Shown here piece by piece: positions 522-13,138 of a stretch of 64,000 nucleotides of DNA. This stretch comes from Roseibacillus sp. (GTDB lineage: Bacteria; Verrucomicrobiota; Verrucomicrobiia; Verrucomicrobiales; Akkermansiaceae): assembly GCA_051251855.1 (NCBI GenBank), contig JBPOGI010000002.1, positions 749,605-813,604 on the forward strand, in the 5' to 3' direction. Numbering within the stretch: the stretch's first letter is position 1; each line of letters opens with the position of its first letter. The notes under the pieces are model-generated. The model worked only from the letters and a program-made list of their open reading frames with translations, was not told the origin of the DNA and ran no database searches. Both the position numbers and the translations under genes were made by a program.

Positions 522-914
522 CTACTTTGGAGTTGCCAACATATAGTTGACGGCATTGGTCACTTCTTCGTCGGTGAGACTGGGGGTGCCTCCGCGAGCA
601 GGCATCTCGCCATCGGGTCCTTGAAAGCCGTTGATGGCGTGATCAAGGAGAACGGCGAGTCCCTTCTCGGACCGAGTTTCCCATTCTTCCGCTTTCGCAA
701 GGGAAGGGGCTCCTTCCTCTCCTTCGTCGTGGCATCCCGAGCATTCGATCTGGTAGATCGCTCGTCCGGCAAGGAGGTCAGGATCGGAGGGGATCCAATC
801 CCACGGGTGCTCGGGCTTGATTTCCTTTTCAGTTTCAGCTGCTTCCTCTGGCGAGGATTTACAGGAGGAAAGGAAGGCGAGGCTGAAGCAGGAGAGGAGA
901 AGAAATGGCTTCAT
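522..914 (-). CDS. cytochrome c5-family lipoprotein
   Basis: Lipobox FLSS-C, single CSGCH, c5-like 'LLDHAINGF...MPARGG...AVNYM'. Confidence 0.85.
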   Translation of the reverse strand: MKPFLLLSCFSLAFLSSCKSSPEEAAETEKEIKPEHPWDWIPSDPDLLAGRAIYQIECSGCHDEGEEGAPSLAKAEEWETRSEKGLAVLLDHAINGFQGPDGEMPARGGTPSLTDEEVTNAVNYMLATPK

Positions 915-938
915 TATCCAAAGTATCCAGGTGAATTG

Positions 939-1574
939 TTAAGAGGTGGGGATACGGATGACGATACCTCCCATGACGTCGTTCTTCTTAAACTCTGGGT
1001 AGTCTGGTTGGCGGTTTTCGTGGTTGTTGTGGCATTCCCAACAAGCAGGAGCGACGGCTTTGTCGGGATAGATTCCAACAAAGTATTCTTGTCCGCCAAT
1101 CTCTTCGAGTGCAGTCCACTTCTTTCCGTAATAATCGCTGGCAGGGTCGGATACCTCAGCGAGACCTTTCTCTACGGCAGGAGTTTTCTTCTTGGCGTTC
1201 TCCATGTTGAGGGGCCAAGTCGACTGAAGAGAGTAGGAGAAGTCAAAGGGCTTGCCTTCGACGGAGTCTACTTCTTCTGCGCCTTCGCGGAACATTTGAG
1301 CAGGGAGGAGGAGGGCTTTTTCTTCGGCCCATTCTTCGTGTGCTTTGATGACCTTCTCATCTCTCACGAGACGGTTGACGATCTTGGTCGCGTAGACTTT
1401 GCGGTCTGACTTGAGCACGATATAGAGCGCTTCGGCGACGGCTTCGGCATCGTAGCCTCCATCGGAGCCGCTGCTGGCTTCTGAGTCTCCGGACTTACAG
1501 GAAGCAAGTGCGAAGGCGAGGGTGGTGGTGCCGGCGATCCATGTGGGGCCGATCCATCTTTTATTCATTTTCAT
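939..1574 (-). CDS. DUF3365/Tll0287-like monoheme cytochrome c lipoprotein
   Basis: Start moved to ATG 1574 (or 1568), overlapping the upstream stop. Lipobox ALAS-C; C-terminal AVAPACWECH...DVMGGIVIRIP typical of this domain. Confidence 0.75.
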   Translation of the reverse strand: MKMNKRWIGPTWIAGTTTLAFALASCKSGDSEASSGSDGGYDAEAVAEALYIVLKSDRKVYATKIVNRLVRDEKVIKAHEEWAEEKALLLPAQMFREGAEEVDSVEGKPFDFSYSLQSTWPLNMENAKKKTPAVEKGLAEVSDPASDYYGKKWTALEEIGGQEYFVGIYPDKAVAPACWECHNNHENRQPDYPEFKKNDVMGGIVIRIPTS

Positions 1575-3030
1575 TTGGTAGTTTGGTTTGTTCTTCTTCG
1601 GGTGGGGTCGGGGTGGAACCGGCCTGTTCTTCTGAGGGAGATTCGAGGAATTTCTTGAGAGCGATAATCTCTTCGTTACCGCGCTCAATAGCGGCATCGA
1701 CGGTCCAGCTGATGCCGGGGTGCTCAATGGTGGGATGGCTGGCGAAGTTGCTCTTGATGAGCTTTTGGTCGGCGAGCGCGTTCATGGAGAATTGGAGTCC
1801 GTGGCAGTCCATGCAGACATTGCGCAACATCTTCTCGTTGGGAGTGAGGTTGGCGTTCTGGTTGTGATTGACGACGACTTGGCCCTCGCGCTCCTCGCGT
1901 GGCATGTGGCAGGTGGCGCAAGAGACTCCGGTGTTCTCTTCACCGGTGCCGGCGAGTTCGGCGAGCCAGAGTCGTGAGTGACCAGAGTTCAAGTAGTTCT
2001 TACTATGGTCGTCGTCGTGGCATTGAAGGCAGGCTTGTTGGGAGGCGAATTGACGGTCGTAGTTGTGGGGCTGATGGCAAGAGGAGCAAGAGAGGTCGCG
2101 ATGTGCCGAGGAGGATTTCATAGGGCGTCGAGCTTGCTCGGGGGTCATCCCGGAGAGGCTTTGAGCGAGTCTCATGCCGTGCTTGCCTTTGAGGAAGTCG
2201 GTGACTTCGGGCTCGTGGCAGCTTTGGCAGGAGGAGTGGTCGGGGGATGGGACCCACGCACCGGTGGTGGGATGGTCGTGGCAGTCTGAGCAGTTTACTC
2301 CTGCGTTGGCGTGGGCGGTGTGTTCCCAGCTGTCGTTAATGGATTGGTTGGTGAGTTGGGGGGCGGGAGCATCGGCGGTGGCGATAGTGAGGGGTTCACG
2401 CTTCTTATTTCCTTCGTCGAGCCACTTTTGCAGGGCATCGGCTTCGAGGAGGGTGCTTTCTGGAAGGAAGTCAGCTTCACCATAGTGCTTGAGGAGGAAG
2501 CTGGGGGCTAAGGCAACGTTGTCGTGGTAGTTGTGGCAGCCAGAGTCGGCGCAGGAATTGAAGGGGAGGAAGCGATGTGAATCGAGGTTGTCGAGGGTGA
2601 CTTGATGGCAGTGGGCGCAGTAGTCAGGGGGGAGAGTTACGCCCATTTCGTGGGTGATTTTTTCGTTGTGCTCGGCGTGGCAGGCGACGCAGCTCATGGC
2701 GTCCACGTGCTCAAGGTAGATGTGGTTGTCGGGGTTCTTAAACTTGCGGGTGGGGTGGGAGTCGCTGAAAGCGGTGAGGTCCTCGCCGTGGCAGTTGATA
2801 CAGGCTGAGCTGGGGACGCCGGAGGAGGTGAAAATATTCTCGCTTTCTTCGTCTGTGTGGCAGGCGGCGCAGGCAAGCTCGATTTGGTAATGGCCGTGAG
2901 TGGTCTTGCCTGGGAGGAGGACGGTTTTGTCTTCGGCCCTGAGAAGGATGTGGCTCAACCACGCAGAAAGGCCCACTGTGACGATGAGCCAGAGTAGGAT
3001 GCTTTTTCGTTTTTGAATCCAATGAGCCAC
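1561..3030 (-). CDS. membrane-anchored multiheme cytochrome c (10 CxxCH + 1 Cx4CH)
   Basis: N-terminal hydrophobic helix; motifs CAACH, CINCH, CVACH, CAHCH, CADSGCH, CSDCH, CQSCH, CSSCH, CLQCH, CATCH, CMDCH; no CxxCK. Confidence 0.9.
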   Translation of the reverse strand: MAHWIQKRKSILLWLIVTVGLSAWLSHILLRAEDKTVLLPGKTTHGHYQIELACAACHTDEESENIFTSSGVPSSACINCHGEDLTAFSDSHPTRKFKNPDNHIYLEHVDAMSCVACHAEHNEKITHEMGVTLPPDYCAHCHQVTLDNLDSHRFLPFNSCADSGCHNYHDNVALAPSFLLKHYGEADFLPESTLLEADALQKWLDEGNKKREPLTIATADAPAPQLTNQSINDSWEHTAHANAGVNCSDCHDHPTTGAWVPSPDHSSCQSCHEPEVTDFLKGKHGMRLAQSLSGMTPEQARRPMKSSSAHRDLSCSSCHQPHNYDRQFASQQACLQCHDDDHSKNYLNSGHSRLWLAELAGTGEENTGVSCATCHMPREEREGQVVVNHNQNANLTPNEKMLRNVCMDCHGLQFSMNALADQKLIKSNFASHPTIEHPGISWTVDAAIERGNEEIIALKKFLESPSEEQAGSTPTPPEEEQTKLPNENE

Positions 3031-3038
3031 GAAGTTTT

Positions 3039-5051
3039 TTAGTAAAGGTAGACCGAGAGAATGTGGAAGGTGAGGAGCACGGGGAGGGGCCAGAAGAGAA
3101 TGAGGTGCGCGTAGGTGAGGGCGGGGCGGAAGCGTCTGGCGGTGAGGGCAGCCTTGGAATTACCGGCGCTTTCGATGGCTGCGACGACTCCAGCAAGGGC
3201 TCCTAGTAGATTGAGAGCTACGAAAGTGAACATGAGCCAGAAGTTTAGGTTGTGACCGAAGCGGAATCCGGTGTGAACGAACAATGCCAAGAGGGCAATG
3301 ATGCCGAAGGCGGTATGAAAGACCCTCCAGTAGGCGAAGTGGCCAAAGCGAAACCACTTGATGCGCTTGCGAAGTGAGAGGAGAAGCCCAATCAGGAAGA
3401 TGCCCATGAGGGTGTATCCGGTAATCTGCTTGATGACGCCGTCGCGCCAAAATTGGTCGACTTGATACCACCATGATGCGACTGAGTCGGCCATCGCTGG
3501 TGGGGGAGCAAAGATAGTGATGAGGACGGCAAGGAGAGCAAGAATGGAGAGGGCGAGAAGGGCGCGTGCTCCCTTGGGTTTCGAAACGACGGGGGCTCCG
3601 CAAAGTTCATCTAGGAGAGGTTCGCAGGAACCGCAAACGGTGGACGCGCTGGTCTGGGCGGCGAGAAGTTTGGGGTCGTTCTTGCACTTAGCGAGGCAGG
3701 CGACGAGCTGCCCCTTGTTGACTCCCATGCAGTTGCAAACGATGCGCTCGTCGGGCCATTGGGCGACCGGTGTTTCGCCGCCACCTGGTTGGAGGACACC
3801 TTCGGCGGCGAAGTAGTCTTCTTCCTTCTTCTTGATGAATTGTCCCTCGGCATAGAGAGATTGGATTTTTCCACCTTCAGGCCAGTCGCCTACTCCAAGG
3901 CCGCCTTTGAGTTCTCCCTTGGGTCCTAAGATGAGCATGCGGTAGAGATCGTCGGTGGAGAACTCGACGCGTCGGCCTTCTTCGAGGGGGTCGCCAATGG
4001 TGATGACGTCTACCCCGAGCATTTTAAGTCGAGTGGAAAGGTCAGGAGTGGGGAAGGGGGCGATCTTTTGCCCTTCGAGGCGCGCGATGAGGTGGCGGGC
4101 CATGGCGTAGCCCGGAGCGGCGAGGCCATAGATGTTTCCATCGAGGAGGGCGCATTCACCGATGGCGAAGATATTGTCTTCGCTGGTCTCGAAGTGGTCG
4201 TTGACGACGATGCCTCCGCGGAGACCTGTCTCTAATCCGGAGTTTTTGGCAAGCTCGCTATTGGGGGTGATACCGGCGGAGATGACGACGAGGTCGCAGT
4301 CGAGGGGATCGCCTTTGTCGAAGACGAGCCTGAGTTGTTCGCCGGTGTCCTCGATGGTGGTAGAGCCTTTGCCTAGGTAGAGTCCGATGCCTTGCTCTGT
4401 AATGGATTTTTGAAGGAGAGTGGATGCGGTTTCGTTGAGTTGGCGGGGCATCAAGAACGAGGCTCGCTCGACGACGTCTGCTTTGAGTCCCAGTTTTTGA
4501 ATGGCTTGAGCGGCTTCGAGACCGAGGAGTCCACCCCCGACGACTGCGGCTTTGGATTTACCCTTGGAGGCTGAAATAATGGACTTGAGGTCGACTATAT
4601 TGCGGTAGAGGAAAACGTTGGGATGGTCACCGCCGGGAATGGGAGGGACGAAGGGGCGTGAGCCGGTGGCGAAGACGAGGATGTCGTAGTTGTGCTTGGT
4701 TTCATCCGAAAGGGTGACGCACTTGAGCTTGGGGTCGACTGCGACGACTTCGGTGCTAGTGAGGAGGGTAATTCCTTTTTCCTGATACCACTCTTCGCTG
4801 TTGAAGATGAGCTGGCTGGCATCCTTGTGGTCAACGTAGGTTGAGAGGTTGATGCGGTCGTAGGCGGGGAGAGGTTCTTTGCCGACGACGGTAATCTCCA
4901 GGTTAGGGAAAATCTTCGATTGGGTGAAATACTCACAGAGCTTTCCTCCGACCATGCCGTTGCCAATCACCAAGAGGCGAGAACCTTTGGGCAACGCCTG
5001 GCGGCGGCTTGCCTTCTTGTTCTTGGATTGACCTTGAAAGGCGGACTTCAC
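3039..5051 (-). CDS. NirB-like NAD(P)H/FAD oxidoreductase + BFD-type [2Fe-2S] + C-terminal His-rich membrane domain
   Basis: VIGNGMVG, ATGSRPF, VGGGLLGLEAA, AIGECA (NirB N-terminal half); CNC...CGSC cluster motif; about 5 C-terminal TM helices with two His pairs 14 residues apart; no siroheme/4Fe-4S domain. Confidence 0.85.
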   Translation of the reverse strand: MKSAFQGQSKNKKASRRQALPKGSRLLVIGNGMVGGKLCEYFTQSKIFPNLEITVVGKEPLPAYDRINLSTYVDHKDASQLIFNSEEWYQEKGITLLTSTEVVAVDPKLKCVTLSDETKHNYDILVFATGSRPFVPPIPGGDHPNVFLYRNIVDLKSIISASKGKSKAAVVGGGLLGLEAAQAIQKLGLKADVVERASFLMPRQLNETASTLLQKSITEQGIGLYLGKGSTTIEDTGEQLRLVFDKGDPLDCDLVVISAGITPNSELAKNSGLETGLRGGIVVNDHFETSEDNIFAIGECALLDGNIYGLAAPGYAMARHLIARLEGQKIAPFPTPDLSTRLKMLGVDVITIGDPLEEGRRVEFSTDDLYRMLILGPKGELKGGLGVGDWPEGGKIQSLYAEGQFIKKKEEDYFAAEGVLQPGGGETPVAQWPDERIVCNCMGVNKGQLVACLAKCKNDPKLLAAQTSASTVCGSCEPLLDELCGAPVVSKPKGARALLALSILALLAVLITIFAPPPAMADSVASWWYQVDQFWRDGVIKQITGYTLMGIFLIGLLLSLRKRIKWFRFGHFAYWRVFHTAFGIIALLALFVHTGFRFGHNLNFWLMFTFVALNLLGALAGVVAAIESAGNSKAALTARRFRPALTYAHLILFWPLPVLLTFHILSVYLY

Positions 5052-5062
5052 TCTTTGAGTTG

Positions 5063-5079
5063 AGCATTCGGGTAACCAA
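5063..5079 (-). promoter_or_regulatory. sigma54-like -24/-12 element upstream of the redox operon
   Basis: Minus strand TTGGTTACCCGAATGCT (GG-N10-GC); GC lies 13 nt before the GTG start. Confidence 0.55.
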
Positions 5080-5127
5080 TAGTTTGGAGCTTGCTTCGAT
5101 TCTTTAGGAAAGTGGGACCCCGAAAGA

Positions 5128-5142
5128 ATGAGTTTTGTTAAT
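5128..5142. promoter_or_regulatory. degenerate ATGA-N7-TCAT box
   Basis: ATGAGTTTTGTTAAT (1 mismatch), 51 bp from the GG element as in the other promoters. Confidence 0.5.
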
Positions 5143-5175
5143 GCTCTATTTCGCTCCTGAAAATCGCGGAAATGG

Positions 5176-5190
5176 ATGATTGGATTTCAT
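5176..5190. promoter_or_regulatory. ATGA-N7-TCAT box (LysR-type T-N11-A)
   Basis: ATGATTGGATTTCAT, perfect half-sites. Confidence 0.6.
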
Positions 5191-5385
5191 GAGAGGTGGC
5201 CTTGGTTGATCGTCACTTTGATGGGCACTATCTCCGACTGCGCTCCCCTCGGTGATGATGGCTCGAGGGAGCGAGTGTCTCTTATACGCGAGTGTGAATT
5301 TGGTCGTCTCGACTGGATGAGTAGGGCTTCTATCCAATTGGACTCAGACTCACTGACTAGAGGGCTGTGCTACTTGTTAAGTGAC

Positions 5386-5415
5386 AAAAAAACTCCGACG
5401 AATGAATCGTCGGAG
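5386..5415 (-). terminator. rho-independent terminator after nrtB-like gene
   Basis: CTCCGACGA-atgaa-TCGTCGGAG perfect 9-bp stem; A7 at 5386-5392 gives the U-tract on the minus strand. Confidence 0.85.
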
Positions 5416-5447
5416 CTTTGAGAAGAGAAAAAACTTGAGACCTACGT

Positions 5448-7082
5448 CTAGGCGGTGGCGGAACCGTCATCGAAGGAGACGAGGCGTTGGAGTATAATCA
5501 TCAAGCGGTCGAGGAAGAATCCAATGACTCCTACCACGAAGCAGGCGAGGATGATGTTGGCAAAGGATTGTGAGGAGCCATTTTGATATTCGTCCCAGAC
5601 ATACTTGCCGAGTCCGTCGGATGAGGAAAGGGCTTCAGCGGCGATGAGGACCATCCAGCCCACTCCGAGTGAGATGCGCAGGCCGGCGAAGACAAGCGGA
5701 AGGGAGGAGGGAATGACGATTTTGAAAAGGCGGGACCAGAAGCCGAGCTTGAGAACCTTGGCGACATTGAGGTGGTCTTTATCGATGGCAGAAACGCCGA
5801 GCGCGGTGTTGACCAACGCAGGCCAGAGGGCGCACATAGCAACGGTGCAGGCCGAGAAGATCATGGCGGGGTTGGTTTGCAGAAAAGACAAGGGGTTGAG
5901 GGAGTCGTTCATGAAAACGAAGAGGGGATGGCTCGCTGGATCGGGGAGGAAAAAGGCGCCGACGATGATTTGGAAAATAAGGAGCCAAACGACCGGTGAT
6001 ACTGGGCGGAAGATTGAAATGAGAGGCGTCATGGAAGCCATGAAGATACGATTGAGTCCGCACATGATACCGAGAGGAATGGCTACGACAGCGGCAATGA
6101 GGAACCCTACGAAGACGGTGGCGATAGAGCGCTTAGTCTGCCAAAAAATGGTAGCGGTGCGAGGGTAGGTTTGTTCGCTCGTGCTGGCAGCGCGTTCGCT
6201 GTTTTTGACGACAGACTTCGCTTCTTTGAGGGCTTCTTTTCCAGTAGCAGCGGCGGCGAGTTGCTGGGTGTCTTCTTTGGCCTTGGCGATGAGGGTTGCT
6301 TCTTTGACGCTGCGGTTTCCAGTAGTGAGAATGTCGATGAGCTTCTTGTAGTGCTGCACTTCGTCGGCTACCTTGTTCGTTGCGAGTTGAGATGATTTGA
6401 CCTCTTCAGGAGGGTTGTCTCGAATGAGGTCGAGCTCGTCTTTAAGCAGGGTTTCTGCATTTTTTTCCTTCTCTTCGAAGGCGGTGCTTTCTTTCACGAG
6501 AGCGATGAGTTTTTCAGGGGATGCTTCCTTCAGCGCGACCTTTTCTGCGAGGGTTTCTAAGGCGAGGTCTCGAGCGTCTTCGGCGGCATTATTCTTCGCC
6601 TTGATGGCATCATAGCGAGCTTGCACGGGGGCGAGCTTGGCGTTCATTTCTTCCTTGGAGGAGGCTGCGATTTCGACTGCCTTTTTTTGGAGCTTGGCTT
6701 GCTCGGCTTCGAGGGTGATGAGTTCTTTCTTGGCGCGTTCGATTTCTTCCAACCGTGGCTTGCCAGTGAGGCCGAAGGCGTTCTCCTTCTCGTTCTCGCG
6801 CTCATTAAAACGTCGGGCGTCGTTGAACGCGGTGCTGACGGCAGCTGGACCGGGGACTTCGCCGGACTTGGTCTTCAGTTTAGTGATGACGGTGGCCCAG
6901 ATGAAGATGAGAATGGAAACAAAGACGATAGGAACGACCATGTATTGGGCGATGTCTTTGACTTGTTTCTGAGGCTCCTCGCCAAAGAGGAGTCTAACGG
7001 GCGGGTCGAGAACCTTAAAGCCGCTGACATCGATGACCTTGAGAATTCCGTATTTGATTTTGTCCTTGGGTGAGTCTGACAT
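5448..7082 (-). CDS. nrtB: nitrate/nitrite ABC transporter permease (NrtB family) with long coiled-coil insertion
   Basis: Start moved to ATG 7082 (MSDSPK). C-terminal NrtB motifs FRPVSPVVW, LVNTALGV, GLRISLGVGWMVLIAAE, GLGKYVWDEYQNG. Confidence 0.85.
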   Translation of the reverse strand: MSDSPKDKIKYGILKVIDVSGFKVLDPPVRLLFGEEPQKQVKDIAQYMVVPIVFVSILIFIWATVITKLKTKSGEVPGPAAVSTAFNDARRFNERENEKENAFGLTGKPRLEEIERAKKELITLEAEQAKLQKKAVEIAASSKEEMNAKLAPVQARYDAIKAKNNAAEDARDLALETLAEKVALKEASPEKLIALVKESTAFEEKEKNAETLLKDELDLIRDNPPEEVKSSQLATNKVADEVQHYKKLIDILTTGNRSVKEATLIAKAKEDTQQLAAAATGKEALKEAKSVVKNSERAASTSEQTYPRTATIFWQTKRSIATVFVGFLIAAVVAIPLGIMCGLNRIFMASMTPLISIFRPVSPVVWLLIFQIIVGAFFLPDPASHPLFVFMNDSLNPLSFLQTNPAMIFSACTVAMCALWPALVNTALGVSAIDKDHLNVAKVLKLGFWSRLFKIVIPSSLPLVFAGLRISLGVGWMVLIAAEALSSSDGLGKYVWDEYQNGSSQSFANIILACFVVGVIGFFLDRLMIILQRLVSFDDGSATA

Positions 7083-7109
7083 AGCGAAGCTGTGAGCTGG
7101 CCGAACTCT

Positions 7110-7126
7110 TGCAGCCCTCGGGCCAA
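7110..7126 (-). promoter_or_regulatory. sigma54-like -24/-12 element upstream of nrtB
   Basis: Minus strand TTGGCCCGAGGGCTGCA. Confidence 0.65.
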
Positions 7127-7173
7127 GTGGCGGAGTTGGGCTGAGAATTTTGAGAAGAGATGAACTCGACTCC

Positions 7174-7188
7174 ATGAATTTGATTCAT
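7174..7188. promoter_or_regulatory. ATGA-N7-TCAT box upstream of nrtB
   Basis: ATGAAT-TTG-ATTCAT palindrome; the 18-mer CATGAATTTGATTCATGA differs at one base from the copy at 13123-13140. Confidence 0.75.
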
Positions 7189-7201
7189 GAATTTTTCCGT
7201 T

Positions 7202-8089
7202 TTACGGTTTTTGAATGATAATACGGAAGCCGATGTTGTAGCTACGGCTTTCGGGGCCAGAGCTGTAGCGGTAGGCTGACCGGCAGCTATTGGCGGTTCG
7301 GTTCCAAGTTCCCCCGCGAATATTTCTACCGTCACCTGTTTCGGGGCCTTGGGGATCGTTCCCGCCGCTGGCTTTCTCGGAATACCAGTCGGCACACCAT
7401 TCGTAGAGGTTGCCGTGCATGTCGTAGAGTCCCCATGCGTTGGGTTCGAAGCTTTTTACCTCGGTCGTTTTTTCGCGGTACTCGCCTTCTTCAGTGAGAC
7501 CGTAGGGCTTCTTGCCATAGAAGTTTGCTTGTTCAGCGCTGAGGGTGTTACCGAATGAGAAGACGGTGCGCGTGCCTGCGCGGCAGGCGTATTCCCATTG
7601 GGCTTCGGTGGGGAGGGTGTAGGCGAGTTCCTTTGGAAGAACTCCGGACTCGTGTTCAGTTTGGGTAAGGATCTTGGCAAAGGAGATGGCGTCTGACCAG
7701 TTGACGAAGCTCATGGGTTGATTGGGTCCTATTGCTGAAGCTTCTGCGACCAAGTTAGCTCCGCGCCCGATAGGGCCTTCTTTGATGTCGATTTGCTGTT
7801 GGATGGTCTTTCCCATGACGGCGAGCCATTGTCCTTGCGTAATCTCGGATTCAGACATGAGGAAGTTCTGCGAAATTTTCACGGAGACTTCGTCTTCGTC
7901 GTTGCCACGGCCTTTTTCCGTTTCGGGGCTGCCCATTACAAATTCGCCGGCAGTGATGGGGAGCATTTTGAGGCCGATGCTGTTGTTGTAGGGTTCGGTG
8001 AGAAGTCTTTCGTCAGCAAGAGAAGTATGGGTGCCGAGAGCGAGGGTTACCACGGCGAGAAAGGGGAGGGGCCAGAGTTTTTGCTGCAT
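7202..8089 (-). CDS. secreted FGE-sulfatase (SUMF1/NirV-like) domain protein
   Basis: Signal peptide; LPTEAQWEYACRAG, NAWGLYDMHGNLYEWC, RGGTW, IGFR. Confidence 0.85.
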   Translation of the reverse strand: MQQKLWPLPFLAVVTLALGTHTSLADERLLTEPYNNSIGLKMLPITAGEFVMGSPETEKGRGNDEDEVSVKISQNFLMSESEITQGQWLAVMGKTIQQQIDIKEGPIGRGANLVAEASAIGPNQPMSFVNWSDAISFAKILTQTEHESGVLPKELAYTLPTEAQWEYACRAGTRTVFSFGNTLSAEQANFYGKKPYGLTEEGEYREKTTEVKSFEPNAWGLYDMHGNLYEWCADWYSEKASGGNDPQGPETGDGRNIRGGTWNRTANSCRSAYRYSSGPESRSYNIGFRIIIQKP

Positions 8090-8103
8090 TATGGGAGGAT
8101 GAG

Positions 8104-8120
8104 AGCAGAAAGAGAACCAA
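8104..8120 (-). promoter_or_regulatory. sigma54-like -24/-12 element upstream of FGE-domain gene
   Basis: Minus strand TTGGTTCTCTTTCTGCT; only an ATGA half-site (8168) lies 50 bp upstream. Confidence 0.45.
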
Positions 8121-8170
8121 GGAGCACGAAGGCAGCTTTTGATTCACGAGTGGAATTACTTTAAACTATG

Positions 8171-8208
8171 AAACAAAAAGACCGTCTGGAGATGAACTCC
8201 AGACGGTC
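8171..8208 (-). terminator. rho-independent terminator after nrtA-like gene
   Basis: GACCGTCTGGAG-atgaa-CTCCAGACGGTC perfect 12-bp stem followed on the minus strand by TTTTTGTTT. Confidence 0.85.
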
Positions 8209-8233
8209 AAATAACCAGGATAAGTTGTTTCGA

Positions 8234-9595
<1,362 letters not shown>

Positions 9596-9602
9596 TGTTT
9601 GG

Positions 9603-10679
9603 TTAGTTTTCTTTGACTCCTGGAACGGAGGTTGAGAGTTGTTCTTGGGCTTGCTCGAAGAGGTCCATGCGGAAGATGAAGTCGTTGGGGAGCTGTTGCC
9701 CTTTTCTAAGAAGTCCCGAGAGGCGGACTCCTTCGCGCAGCCACGAAGCTGTCTTGCTAGTGGGAGCGTTGACTTCCTTGTCGTGAAAGATGTGAAAGTC
9801 GGGAAAGGACTTTTCGGGGTTTCCACTGGTGGCAGGAAGGCGACCCAAGAGGCTGAAGGGGAGGGAATCTTGGATAAGGTTCATTCCGGGTTCGGCTGAG
9901 AGGTAAGTGAGAACTTCGTTGTGATTGCTTGGATTCTGGCAATACTGGCAGGCTTCCAAGAGGGCGCTAGTGAGGGATCGGAGCTCGTTAGGATGGCTTT
10001 CAGCAAAGCTGAGAGTGGCAGCGAGTACTTTCTCGGGGTGGCCGTTAGAGAGTTCTATCGAGTTGGAAACGCACCAGCCGATTCCTTGCATCATGGCCAC
10101 CGAGTTCCAAGGTTCGCCCACACAGCAGCCGTCAATATGACCGTGGGAAAGACTACGAATCATGATTTCTGGTGGAAGAGAAATGATTTCGACGAAGGGG
10201 TGTTTTGCAATTCCATTTCGCTTGAGCCACAGGAGAAGGAGCGAGTGATGTGAAGAGCAGGGATGCACGGAGGCGAGGGTGAGGGGGGACTCCTTGCTGT
10301 AGTTTTCTTCGATGAAAGCTAGGAATTCTCCAGGCTTATCGAACATGTCACGGGGAATCTTATTAGAGAGGGTAAGGCCGTTACCGTTGGCGCTAAGCAC
10401 GAGGGGAACGACCATTTCTTTGGGGATTGTGCCGACGCCGTGATGGATGGCGAGGGCGAGAGGTCCGAGGCATTGGGCTGCGTCGAGCTCGGCGTGAACG
10501 AGTTTTTCGCGAACGGTGGCCCAGCCTGGCTCTTGGGAGGTGACAACGTTGACACCATGCTTTGCAAAGAGTCCCTTCTCTCGAGCAACGATGATCGGAG
10601 CGCAGTCAATGAGGGGGATATACCCCAATCGGATTGGCTGGTTAGTGATTGTGAGAAGGTTGGAATCAGGTGAAACCAT
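9603..10679 (-). CDS. cytoplasmic NrtA-like nitrate/nitrite sensor (NasS-like)
   Basis: [26 protein letters not shown]; no signal peptide or lipobox. Confidence 0.75.
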
Positions 10680-10690
10680 GCCGTTCTCTC

Positions 10691-10707
10691 AGCCGGAGTC
10701 GTGCCAA
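10691..10707 (-). promoter_or_regulatory. sigma54-like -24/-12 element upstream of NasS-like gene
   Basis: Minus strand TTGGCACGACTCCGGCT (consensus TGGCAC); GC lies 13 nt before the ATG. Confidence 0.65.
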
Positions 10708-10755
10708 ATGGCAAAAATGGCATATTTGGTGCTATGGGAAAGTATCTCAACAATG

Positions 10756-10770
10756 ATGAACCCCATTCAT
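10756..10770. promoter_or_regulatory. ATGA-N7-TCAT box overlapping the lysR start codon
   Basis: ATGAACCCCATTCAT in the divergent intergenic region; typical LysR autoregulatory position. Confidence 0.7.
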
Positions 10771-11728
10771 GTACCGTGAATTACCAGACCTGCGCCAAGT
10801 AAGAGCCTTTGTGGCGCTTGCAGATACCCAGTCCTTTACGCGGGCGGCTGAGACTTTATTTTTGACGCAGTCGGCGGTAAGCCATTCGATTCGCAGTCTT
10901 GAGCAGCAACTGGAGGTTCAGTTGGTGGAACGTTCGGGCAAGAAAATTGCTCTCACGCAGGACGGAGTTGTTTTTCTTCGACGTTGTCGTTCAGTGATTA
11001 GCGAGTTGGAGCAAGCCACCCAAGAAATGGAGGCGCTTAAGCGTTGGGGCCAAGGCAGAATTCGATTAGGGGCGACCCACACGCTTTGCCAGTATCTCTT
11101 GCCGACAGTGCTGCGGGAGTTTCGCGATTGTTTTCCACGTTGTGAAGTTCACATCGAGTCGGGCGACACGGCGGAACTCATGCAAAAGCTTGAGGATGCT
11201 CAGCTCGATTTGGTTTTGGGGTTAGGTGGTCGCACACCCAACTGGGCCGCTTTTCTCCCCGTGTTCGATGATGAGCTGGTTTTCGTGGTGTCCGCGCAGC
11301 ACCCTTGGGCGAACAAAGTAGAGATTCCTTTGGAGGAAATTGGCAGCGAGTCTTTTCTAATTTATGCGAAGAAGAGTGAGACCTATCGGCTCATTCGCAA
11401 TCACTTCGAGGGTCTTGGCGTCAAGCTAAGGACCACGCTCAACCTAGGTGCGATGGAGGCCATTAAAGAAATGGCACGTATTGGAATTGGGGTTGGGATC
11501 GTTTCGCCTTGGGTGGCTCGAAAGGAATTGGAGCGAGGTCAACTCGTGCAGGTTCCCATTCGAAAGGAGCCTCTCACCAGGGAGTGGGGGGTCTTTTGTC
11601 ACGAGAGTAAGAAGCTTTCATTGGTCGAAGATACTTTCGTGGGAATCTGTGAGGTGACGGCTCGGACCTTCAATGCTTCACCAACGGCCCCAACTGAAAA
11701 AGCCGTCGACCTTGCGGCGACGGCTTAG
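10769..11728 (+). CDS. LysR-family transcriptional regulator
   Basis: HTH SFTRAAETLFLTQSAVSHSIRSLE...LTQDG followed by a substrate-binding domain. Confidence 0.95.
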   Translation: MYRELPDLRQVRAFVALADTQSFTRAAETLFLTQSAVSHSIRSLEQQLEVQLVERSGKKIALTQDGVVFLRRCRSVISELEQATQEMEALKRWGQGRIRLGATHTLCQYLLPTVLREFRDCFPRCEVHIESGDTAELMQKLEDAQLDLVLGLGGRTPNWAAFLPVFDDELVFVVSAQHPWANKVEIPLEEIGSESFLIYAKKSETYRLIRNHFEGLGVKLRTTLNLGAMEAIKEMARIGIGVGIVSPWVARKELERGQLVQVPIRKEPLTREWGVFCHESKKLSLVEDTFVGICEVTARTFNASPTAPTEKAVDLAATA

Positions 11729-11751
11729 AGTCAGTTGTTAGAGGAGGTTTC

Positions 11752-13038
11752 TTAGAACTTGTAAGAGAGGTCGACAGTGACTTGCTTGATATCAGCATAG
11801 GCGCTGCTCTCGTCTCCGAAGAAGTAGGCCGCTTTGATGAGACCTGACAGGTTGTCAGTGAATTTCTTCGCCAAGATGAGGTCTGCTTCGTAGCCGTATG
11901 TTGCGCTGAAGCTGTCATCGGCAAAGTAGTGAAGGAAGCCTTTGAGAGTGACGCCTCCAGGAAGCCCGGGCTGCACGAGGCCTAGATATACATCTGAAAG
12001 ACCTTCGTAAGTTCCTCCAGGTCCATTGCGAAGTCCAATGCGGTCGAGGATGAACGCATCCGCAAATCCGTTGTAGGCGTGAACGGTCGCGAAGGGGGTT
12101 TTGAAGTCGTCTTCAAGATACTCAAGTCCGGCAATGAGGGAGGTTTTACCCACTTTATGGGTATATTTTACGTGCCCGTAGAAGGCTTCGTAATCACCTC
12201 CAACTGTGCTGGTCCCGTCTTGAAAAGCTATTTCTCCATAGAGCCCACCGATTGTTGCGAAGGCACCGTAGGTGTTGCTCTCGCCGACGTTGGTGTTGTT
12301 GTCGACGTCAATGAGATATGCGTATCCACCGACGGTTCCAAAGTCAGCGTTGTAGGTGCCGTCAATGAAGTGGAAGTCACCCTCGAAATCATGGAGAGGA
12401 GGTCCGGGCAGAGCGTCATTGGCATCATTTCCGAAGATACGTTGCACGCGATTGGAGTAGGCATATGAGAGCGAGAAGTCGTCGTTCTTGTAGGCGATTT
12501 GGGCTGCGTCGAAGGTCTGTTCGTTCTGACGCCAGCCGACGTTACCAATGAAAGCGGCGCTGTTGCGAATGATGCGTTGGCGTCCTACTTTGGCGAGAAA
12601 GCCATCTTGCTTGTATTGAACCCACGCACGGTTGAGTTCTGCGTTCTGAGGGTCGCCGATGGGGGTGTTACCTGATACGTAAGGGTAAGTTGACCGACTG
12701 AATGGATTGCCGCTAGGAAGAGGGTTACTGGAGTAATCAGCCACTCCTGCGCCGGTGAACTCTCCTTCGGCGAAGGCGCTGAATCCGCCGAAGTCGCCGA
12801 GAAGGAGGCCAACTCGTGCCCTAGCGGTGAGAGCGTTTGAGGGGTCGAGGCCGTCAACTTCGCGGAACTCATACCGAGTATTGAGATTGACGCTTGGGGT
12901 AAGCCATTTGAAGGCATCCGGTTCGGAAGCTACGACAGGCTGCTCAGGAATATCGACGAAAGTCTCGCCTGCAAAAGCTGGAGAAGAGAGGCTAAGCGCA
13001 AGAGTGCAGCGACAAATATATGGATGGATAGTTTTCAT
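11752..13038 (-). CDS. alginate-export-family outer membrane porin
   Basis: Start moved to ATG 13038. Signal peptide; GRQRI...FIGNVGWRQNEQTFDA; FATVHAYNGFAD; C-terminal YKF. Confidence 0.8.
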   Translation of the reverse strand: MKTIHPYICRCTLALSLSSPAFAGETFVDIPEQPVVASEPDAFKWLTPSVNLNTRYEFREVDGLDPSNALTARARVGLLLGDFGGFSAFAEGEFTGAGVADYSSNPLPSGNPFSRSTYPYVSGNTPIGDPQNAELNRAWVQYKQDGFLAKVGRQRIIRNSAAFIGNVGWRQNEQTFDAAQIAYKNDDFSLSYAYSNRVQRIFGNDANDALPGPPLHDFEGDFHFIDGTYNADFGTVGGYAYLIDVDNNTNVGESNTYGAFATIGGLYGEIAFQDGTSTVGGDYEAFYGHVKYTHKVGKTSLIAGLEYLEDDFKTPFATVHAYNGFADAFILDRIGLRNGPGGTYEGLSDVYLGLVQPGLPGGVTLKGFLHYFADDSFSATYGYEADLILAKKFTDNLSGLIKAAYFFGDESSAYADIKQVTVDLSYKF

Positions 13039-13058
13039 ATGATGGTCCGAGAACAGGA

Positions 13059-13075
13059 AGCGTTTGCGGTGCCAT
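13059..13075 (-). promoter_or_regulatory. sigma54-like -24/-12 element upstream of porin
   Basis: Minus strand ATGGCACCGCAAACGCT. Confidence 0.65.
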
Positions 13076-13123
13076 CGAGGTGAAGAAGAGTGTTGGTGAC
13101 GGGTAAAGTGTTTCCATCGACTC

Positions 13124-13138
13124 ATGATTTTGATTCAT
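13124..13138. promoter_or_regulatory. ATGA-N7-TCAT box upstream of porin
   Basis: ATGATTTTGATTCAT within TCATGA-N7-TCATGA. Confidence 0.75.

Follow-up and report, generated by a model that had tools for sequence, protein, structure and literature searches.

Does a LysR-type regulator select the sigma-54 promoters of a nitrate-assimilation cluster in Roseibacillus?

Which protein decides which sigma-54 promoters fire in a bacterial nitrate-assimilation cluster? The question is raised by a stretch of 64,000 nucleotides from Roseibacillus sp. (Verrucomicrobiota; GenBank assembly GCA_051251855.1, contig JBPOGI010000002.1, positions 749,605 to 813,604 of the forward strand), hereafter called the window, to which all plain coordinates refer. 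It carries the Roseibacillus nitrate-assimilation cluster, in which sigma-54 promoters are paired, at a nearly constant distance, with a palindrome of the kind bound by LysR-type transcriptional regulators (LTTRs). Normally, the specificity of sigma-54 transcription is set by a bacterial enhancer-binding protein (bEBP) at a distant enhancer, LTTRs act as activators at sigma-70 promoters and detect small molecules directly, and NasS works via an RNA antiterminator. Here, we describe what is likely a hitherto undescribed switch, in which LysR, and not a DNA enhancer, would decide which sigma-54 promoters fire. The composite system is conserved across a class of Verrucomicrobia. On balance we favour a switch with three parts, in which a NasS-like sensor would gate a LysR tetramer, the LysR would activate sigma-54 promoters from helix-phased sites and so lend its specificity to an enhancer-less bEBP, and the sensor-regulator pair would be reusable, with nitrate and cyanate versions that have altered helices and boxes. 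In what follows, G000 denotes this genome, g and f numbers are genus and family labels, and L numbers are loci.

Promoter-box composites and their spacing

The earlier note on this DNA, made from its letters alone, had claimed five minus-strand TGG-N10-GC elements of the sigma-54 type, beginning at 5063, 7110, 8104, 10691 and 13059, each with a full or partial LysR-type box (ATGA-N7-TCAT) at a fixed offset. All five elements lie at these coordinates, and the boxes are also where they had been placed, three of them perfect, one with one mismatch and one a half-site. The gap is defined here as the number of base pairs between the box and the T of TGG-N10-GC. Perfect boxes accompany the elements of nrtB (7110-7125, minus strand; box at 7174-7188, gap 48), of a nasS-like gene, called nasS below (10691-10706, minus strand, predicted +1 near 10680; box at 10756-10770, gap 49), and of a porin gene (13059-13074, minus strand; box at 13124-13138, gap 49), while the -24/-12 element of a nirB-like gene (5063-5078, minus strand, predicted +1 near 5052) has the box with one mismatch (5128-5142, gap 49). 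The box centre, previously put near -83, is found at about -82/-83, at a gap of 48 or 49 bp. An extra perfect box lies farther upstream of the nirB-like gene (5176-5190), with no promoter at gap 48/49.

Four of the five sites were borne out in this way. The remaining one, a sigma-54-like element before the gene of an FGE-domain protein (8104-8119, minus strand) paired with the half-site at 8168-8182, is doubtful and probably lies outside the system, because no TGG-N10-GC was found at the matching place in any of the three orthologues of the FGE gene and because the half-site sits on the tail of an intrinsic-terminator-like hairpin of 12 pairs 3' of nrtA (8180-8208, minus strand). In favour of this site, TCAT occurs at that gap by chance in only 107 of 13,729 elements (0.8%). 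The 5063 element is kept in three of the five orthologous upstream regions examined (L049, L050 and L053).

A sixth sigma-54 element, absent from the earlier note, is that of lysR itself (10718-10733, plus strand, predicted +1 near 10744), which points away from the nasS element, with 11 bp between the two. The perfect box at 10756-10770, which does overlap the lysR start codon as had been said (ATG at 10769-10771), occupies positions +13 to +27 relative to the predicted lysR start. On the other side, the predicted nasS start site lies on or beside the nasS ATG (10679-10706), also in several relatives; with a +1 near 10680, the nasS message may therefore be leaderless.

Could these pairings be due to chance? 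In the whole genome, there are only three composites of a perfect box, a gap of 48/49 and TGG-N10-GC, all in the nitrate cluster, while about 0.2 would be expected by chance from the 78 boxes and 13,729 elements present genome-wide. The perfect composites thus exceed chance expectation. A sigma-70 scan returned two sites, both on the opposite strand, versus 3.7 expected. The remaining perfect boxes in the genome are mostly next to unrelated genes. Among other sites, a gene for a cysJ-like flavoprotein has a perfect box at gap 25 (C1:201456, L012), and another perfect box lies at gap 95 between two divergent ammonium transporter (amt) genes (C11:119580, L014), which are possible outlying members of the regulon; at C6:504044, a box at gap 49 has no clear gene downstream.

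The pairing extends well beyond this genome. Across the family, the exact 48/49 composite gives 123 matches in 70 of 151 genomes, and a control gap of 43/44 gives 34 in 27 of the 151. For a closer comparison, 107 loci were used, 67 from the family and 40 from elsewhere in the class (38 genomes belonging to other families); every locus was picked by its LysR match and not by the motif. They contain 907 sigma-54-like sites and 156 perfect box-promoter pairs, of which 97 have a gap of 48-50. The other perfect pairs cluster at gaps of 6, 15-16, 26-29 and 37-39, with six more at 9-10, so that the phase concentration of the gaps is 0.73-0.75 at periods of 10.6-11 bp and still 0.55-0.60 without the main peak. 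When the sigma-54 spacing was altered to N8 or N10, only 5 and 0 matches, respectively, were found at gaps 48-49, versus 89 for the true spacing. The spacing, whose conservation in relatives had been proposed as a check, is thus kept across the class, and together with the presence of rpoN it supports the reading of the elements as sigma-54 promoters. The offset is fixed in the window, as had been claimed, and in most lineages; in relatives, sites also occur at gaps of about 6, 16, 27-28 and 38.

Gaps of 48-50 are found in most genera of the family as well as in f6 (probably Opitutaceae), f10, f2 and f18, while family f5 uses gaps of 36-40 and the genera g12 and g15 are on lower rungs of the ladder. 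Lower rungs also occur in this genome: nrtC and nirA, which lie shortly beyond the window, have a perfect box before their sigma-54 elements, at gaps of 27 and 26, respectively (C6:749293 and C6:737931), and these two composites belong to the same regulon. In f5 (L237-L243, L245 and L247), the nasS sigma-54 element is nearly invariant, including its spacer, and has no T at -26. It reads TTGACC on the lysR strand, and lysR of this family may, judging from these letters, use an overlapping sigma-70 promoter.

The LysR-type regulator and its predicted sensor

Which protein, then, binds the boxes? The earlier note had proposed the adjacent LysR (10769-11728, plus strand; HTH_1 and LysR_substrate domains), and several lines, namely the dyad, the co-occurrence, the promoter of lysR and the box of a paralogue, point to it as the likely binder. 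The box is a T-N11-A motif with dyad symmetry. Moreover, 22 of the 51 promoters other than those of nasS have a second site, with no more than three mismatches, precisely 22 bp downstream of the first, while no other offset accounts for more than eight; in the window, a weak site of this kind (10734-10748, three mismatches), at a distance of 22 bp to the main box, spans the predicted start of lysR transcription. The tandem sites therefore fit the layout of LTTR sites, where a strong site is combined with a weak one (PMC11495319). The composite also follows LysR, with 104 matches in 52 of 81 LysR-positive genomes and 19 in 18 of 70 LysR-negative ones, while the control gap gives 18 and 16 matches in the same two sets; one of the "negative" genomes, G020, has lysR at the end of its contig.

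The promoter of lysR itself is organized differently from those of the targets. In 65 of the 67 family loci, lysR is preceded by a sigma-54 element of its own, and among those 65 a box was never found 47-50 bp upstream of the element. The box lies 34-38 bp downstream of the first T of the element in 35 of the 65, and overlaps or abuts the element in others. By its position, the box almost surely represses lysR. Back-to-back pairs of elements are 11-12 bp apart in 53 of the 67 cases found, a spacing that suggests competition between the lysR and nasS promoters.

A natural comparison is offered by the one other LysR found in the predicted proteome. Its gene diverges from a further NasS-like gene, which precedes those of an ABC transporter and cyanase (G000:C1:36733-42668; L286:8734-14669). 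Here, lysR and nasS have been duplicated together at a cyanate operon, and the pair is possibly mobile since it is found in only 6 of 251 family genomes. The recognition helix reads TPSALSH in the cyanate LysR versus TQSAVSH in the nitrate LysR, and the cyanate promoter of this genome carries, at gap 49, the sequence GTGA-N7-TCAC. Six of the seven loci with the cyanate paralogue (L290 being scored by eye) have a variant box at gap 49-50, four of them with the right half TCAC; L293 has none. By the example of BenM, the changed helix residue presumably reads the outer base pair. The cited text names only the neighbouring position 30 (PMC12609908). It counts against the use of the paralogue as a test that the comparison is made on seven loci with loose boxes.

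Alternatively, the box could be the upstream activating sequence of a bEBP with a Fis-type helix-turn-helix (HTH), most likely of the C12/L005 family, phased by DNA looping, with LysR as a bystander or acting elsewhere. Enhancers of this kind do lie upstream, at about 100-150 bp, and can be phase-dependent (PMC7057263), and the L005-family bEBP has an intact HTH_8 and is present in all 55 genomes searched (55/55). However, the composite follows LysR and not this universal bEBP, and within a single genome each LysR paralogue comes with its own form of the box. Tandem sites 22 bp apart, boxes only 5-17 bp from the -24 region and a box over the lysR start also fit a looping hexamer poorly. We consider this explanation quite improbable.

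How would LysR sense nitrate? The NasS-like protein encoded at 9603-10679 (minus strand) is an anion sensor without an evident signal peptide and the predicted partner of LysR. Its NMT1_2 domain begins at residue 14, no hydrophobic leader was seen, and its closest solved relatives are the C-terminal regulatory domains of NrtC and CmpC. The residues W53, H144, P169 and K217, which we take to match the anion ligands of NrtA, are invariant in 73 sequences. No ANTAR domain (PF03861) was matched in G000 (95% complete), G057 or G302, while the control genome G769 was matched, so the NasS-like protein appears to be without its usual partner NasT. Beside lysR, nasS is found in 73 of the 105 loci with a full-length LysR.

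The predicted complex of the NasS-like protein with a pair of LysR chains has a score of 0.84, compared with 0.01 for the best of three controls; the model runs agree in at least 91% of contacts, and the predicted local distance difference test (pLDDT) of the partner is at least 89. Of solved pairs, 116 of 157 reach the score mark, and of mismatched pairs 2 of 215; these figures are only approximate here, since own alignments and two LysR copies were used. Accordingly, the NasS-like protein is predicted to bind LysR. No similar complex was found among sequence relatives in the PDB, as judged by entry names. The modelled interface is formed by residues 113-122 and 283-300 of LysR and by residues 49-58 and 166-182 of the sensor; because the latter include the invariant W53 and P169, the interface probably flanks the anion cleft.

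An independent check comes from lineages that apparently lack the sensor. R116, E117 and G292 of LysR are invariant in all 73 LysRs beside nasS and in all seven cyanate paralogues, while they are present in only 1, 4 and 1, respectively, of the 14 LysRs of g12 and g15. Across the interface, these 14 match the consensus at 0.25, versus 0.42 in the rest of the domain, and a NasS-like gene was not found in any of the five g12/g15 genomes searched (5/5). This apparent loss of interface residues where NasS is missing agrees with the model. Two points speak against the predicted complex: the alignment used for folding held only LysRs adjacent to nasS and may favour a conserved patch, and R116 and E117 are also kept in 10 and 12, respectively, of 18 other LysRs without an adjacent nasS, although nasS was not searched genome-wide in these.

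Core promoters, activator proteins and mode of action

Does LysR act on the sigma-54 promoters together with a bEBP or instead of one? The earlier note had set a LysR acting on sigma-54 promoters against co-regulation with a distant activator. These two alternatives are not exclusive. The inventory that had been called for gave an intact rpoN, with Region I, core-binding and DNA-binding domains, and four receiver-type bEBPs, all outside the window. A sigma-54 factor without Region I, which would need no activator, was considered and rejected, for Region I is present (PF00309, E 1.2e-11). LysR therefore most likely acts with a distant bEBP, given that Region I is kept and that four bEBPs are encoded elsewhere. 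In principle, LysR might activate sigma-54 transcription alone, with no AAA+ ATPase, and no bEBP was seen in the 107 cluster maps, a weak argument because these maps label only homologues of the genes of this cluster. Against it stand the kept Region I, the absence of an ATPase domain from an LTTR and the presence of at least one bEBP in all 151 family genomes searched. Activation by LysR on its own has hardly any probability, and a LysR that replaces the bEBP is unlikely.

Among the four, the bEBP at C1:1837598 (L017:5599-6897) has a receiver and an AAA+ domain with no HTH_8 match, and its loop reads GSFTGA. Its orthologues occur across the family but were not found in g3 or g6. The HTH is deleted in six of seven Roseibacillus and looks eroded, by eye, in 23 other members of the family. 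A frameshift hiding the HTH was rejected, since no HTH-like frame follows the stop and the alignment of relatives speaks against it. The receiver is atypical, with Ala in place of the usual Thr/Ser here and in most aligned relatives, and no kinase gene was seen beside this gene. As described above, the other widespread family, C12/L005, keeps its HTH_8. Six composite-bearing genomes (G102, G048, G111, G058, G010 and G008) have only these two bEBP families.

The nature of the wider sigma-54 regulon bears on the role of this bEBP. A matrix scan gave 39 intergenic sigma-54 matches in the genome, versus 6-17 for controls with wrong spacing; a loose positional scan of the motif upstream of all genes showed no clear enrichment. 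The top matches belong to amt, rpoN, glnK and glnA, with gltB and lysR lower (amt was named by a separate look-up, rpoN, glnK, glnA and gltB from their translations), and no box was found at 47-50 upstream of any of these six elements. The element of rpoN (C1:260067, L001) is strong, with the second-best score in the genome, which suggests that rpoN may be positively autoregulated. A near-consensus element precedes glnK in 26 of 30 loci by pattern, and two more near matches were seen by eye. No conserved upstream motif was found at the 26 glnK promoters, nor was a second motif seen in the 25 bp preceding the nitrate boxes. The remaining two of the 30 glnK loci, which have no sigma-54 element, are those of the g6 genomes, where rpoN is kept with only the universal bEBP. 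Taken together, these correlative data point to the HTH-less bEBP as a putative enhancer-independent nitrogen activator. Against this assignment, the g6 comparison consists of two genomes of one genus, 90% complete; many best-match bEBPs in other families have an intact-looking HTH, with orthology left unsettled by the tree; and G089 has three composites with no bEBP of the HTH-less family found (85% complete, 540 contigs). G149, once a candidate for a box genome without this bEBP, was rejected because the gene runs off the contig end.

If a bEBP fires the box-free promoters unaided, what does LysR add at the others? A T at -14 aids sigma-54 binding. It is present in 26 of 26 glnK promoters and 87 of 88 lysR promoters, compared with only 2 of the 87 promoters of nasS, the porin gene and nrtA whose box is at 47-50. 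Correspondingly, the mean number of mismatches to the sigma-54 consensus is 0.7 for glnK, 2.3 for lysR and 3.1 for nasS/porin/nrtA. That the -14 base is set by the spacing rung was rejected, for it tracks lineage and gene. A weakened core promoter under a phased upstream site is what recruitment of the polymerase predicts. It is probable that LysR recruits the sigma-54 polymerase to weakened promoters under the control of the NasS-like protein, while an enhancer-independent bEBP melts the DNA.

Some observations weigh against recruitment. Internal promoters, those of nrtB, nirA and the nirB-like gene, keep T at -14 in 10 of 12; in the window, T is kept in two of the four good sites, with G at the nasS element and C at that of the porin. 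In g12 and g15, where the boxes are closer, T at -14 is kept in 28 of 28. The counts of loci and genomes are also not independent, because the genomes are related. Furthermore, the precedents for LTTRs at sigma-54 promoters are repressive: AtzR reportedly represses PatzT in a phase-dependent manner. Similarly, Nac, an LTTR, represses a sigma-54 promoter, its own (PMC11495319).

Consequently, the main rival is anti-activation, in which LysR, made under nitrogen limitation, would hold back the bEBP or the closed complex, a block that nitrate, detected by the NasS-like protein, would relieve. Besides the two precedents, it gains from the boxes of g12/g15, which lie 5-17 bp from near-consensus promoters and fit steric repression, and from the same box almost surely repressing lysR. 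However, anti-activation leaves unexplained why T at -14 is avoided at nasS, porin and nrtA promoters with a box at 47-50 and retained at box-free glnK, and no conserved enhancer that it could oppose was seen (at the glnK promoters, where it was looked for). The position of the site also matches that of the activating NtcB box at -82 (bioRxiv 10.1101/2022.10.10.511513). We regard anti-activation as unlikely, with an appreciable residual chance, and lineages that lack nasS and have close boxes may use a repressive mode.

Another possibility is that LysR, instead of recruiting the polymerase, tethers the HTH-less bEBP by direct contact, as its detachable DNA-binding domain. The candidate bEBP has indeed lost its HTH, the phasing is strict, and the same idea has been raised for BosR and Rrp2 (PMC3037356). 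However, the same bEBP family appears to serve box-free glnK without an adaptor, the weakened core points to a limit in polymerase binding, and other box-bearing families have bEBPs with intact-looking HTHs. Tethering thus seems improbable.

Under recruitment by LysR, the following course of events may be proposed. Nitrogen shortage would turn on the bEBP, for which the HTH-less protein is the candidate, and the near-consensus promoters of glnK, glnA, amt, gltB, rpoN and lysR would be fired. A LysR tetramer would then occupy the main site at -82/-83 and the weaker site 22 bp downstream. At nasS, the porin gene and nrtA, the closed complex would depend on LysR for its loading or retention, perhaps via the alpha subunit like NtcB from -82, while the same tetramer, to judge from the geometry, would lie across the start site of lysR and act as an autorepressor. 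The NasS-like protein, according to the structural model, would bind the effector domain of LysR across its anion cleft and gate LysR, and nitrate, by analogy with NasS-NasT, may release or switch LysR. The outcome would be an AND gate of nitrogen limitation and nitrate.

Gene content, known systems and significance

The cluster to which these promoters belong is recognized by its genes. In the LysR locus, the nearest named relatives are Roseibacillus records with 77-93% identity, and the closest solved structures to LysR are NdhR/CcmR (5y2v) and then NtcB (8h3v). With lysR divergent from the nasS-like gene, the minus strand encodes the porin, the NasS-like protein, NrtA, the FGE-domain protein, NrtB and a NirB-like reductase with cytochromes. 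In detail, these are an AlgE/Opr-like outer-membrane porin (11752-13038, minus strand), a periplasmic nitrate-binding protein of the NrtA type (8234-9595, minus strand), the FGE-sulfatase-domain protein (7202-8089, minus strand), the NrtB-like permease of a nitrate ABC transporter (5448-7082, minus strand), and a NirB-like FAD/NADH oxidoreductase with a membrane C-terminus, whose start codon is uncertain (3039-5051, minus strand). The permease has a long insert, a coiled coil of about 200 residues between transmembrane segments. NrtC and NrtD adjoin the window, and nitrite reductase and nitrate reductase follow about 10 kb on (named from translations). A conserved run at 522-5051, inside the nitrate regulon, comprises the NirB-like membrane reductase, whose gene comes first, a multiheme cytochrome, a Tll0287-like protein and a cytochrome c, and a globin gene that spans the start of the window belongs to it. 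This run perhaps has a role in nitrite or NO handling.

The system has parallels among known ones, with a logic like that of BosR/Rrp2, a geometry like that of NtcB, autoregulation like that of Nac and sensing like that of NasS. The genes of Nac (Klebsiella) and AtzR (Pseudomonas sp. ADP) are reportedly sigma-54-dependent, and their activated targets are said to be sigma-70 promoters. Both resemble the present LysR in that the LTTR gene is under nitrogen control with negative autoregulation (for Nac, PMC11495319). They differ in being repressive at sigma-54 promoters, whereas here sigma-54 promoters are the targets and would be activated. NtcB, which acts with NtcA at the PnirA promoter of cyanobacteria, is likewise an LTTR of nitrate assimilation with a box at -82 and a global nitrogen regulator as its partner; there, spacing matters, and activation goes through contact with the alpha subunit (bioRxiv 10.1101/2022.10.10.511513). 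It differs in having a sigma-70-type promoter and a partner of the CRP family, where the present system has sigma-54 and a bEBP, and the available text describes no NasS-like partner for it (bioRxiv 10.1101/2022.10.10.511513). The targets here carry sigma-54 elements, and the system is thus not that of NtcB (NtcA itself was not searched for).

The closest likeness in logic is found in Borrelia burgdorferi, where BosR, a regulator outside the AAA+ class, and the enhancer-independent bEBP Rrp2 work together at the sigma-54 promoter of rpoS, and where recruitment of the polymerase or the bEBP has also been proposed (PMC3037356). BosR belongs to the Fur family and uses a direct repeat beside -24 at one promoter (PMC3037356), whereas here the site is a helix-phased LTTR palindrome that recurs at several promoters in each genome throughout a class, and sensing would fall to a separate protein. 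NasS-NasT of Paracoccus, Azotobacter and Pseudomonas is similar in that its sensor of nitrate and nitrite is a cytoplasmic NrtA-like protein which lacks a signal peptide and governs a regulator by forming a complex with it; the output of that system is an ANTAR RNA antiterminator (PMC5424462), while the predicted partner here is a DNA-binding LTTR. With no ANTAR found, the system is not NasS-NasT. As for the activator, the Group 5 bEBPs FlgR and CtcC also combine a receiver with AAA+ and lack a DNA-binding domain (PMC7175178); by comparison, the loss of the HTH here is recent and partial within the family, and the link to nitrogen genes is putative. A search of the literature, with subscription papers largely outside it, found no LTTR activating sigma-54 promoters, no NasS-LTTR complex and no description of this regulon, and the word LysR is absent from a genome-wide survey of sigma-54 regulons (PMC12316311).

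If the proposed switch is true, the module would depart from the usual modes of sigma-54, LTTRs and NasS, all three, and would provide a second and much wider example of the unresolved BosR-Rrp2 logic. Its geometry would be open to mutation, through the helical ladder of sites, the weakened -14 base and a paralogue with a changed box, in bacteria that are harmless and cultivable, and synthetic biology would gain a modular AND gate. For the organisms themselves, it would explain how an abundant lineage of soil and sea turns on the use of nitrate.

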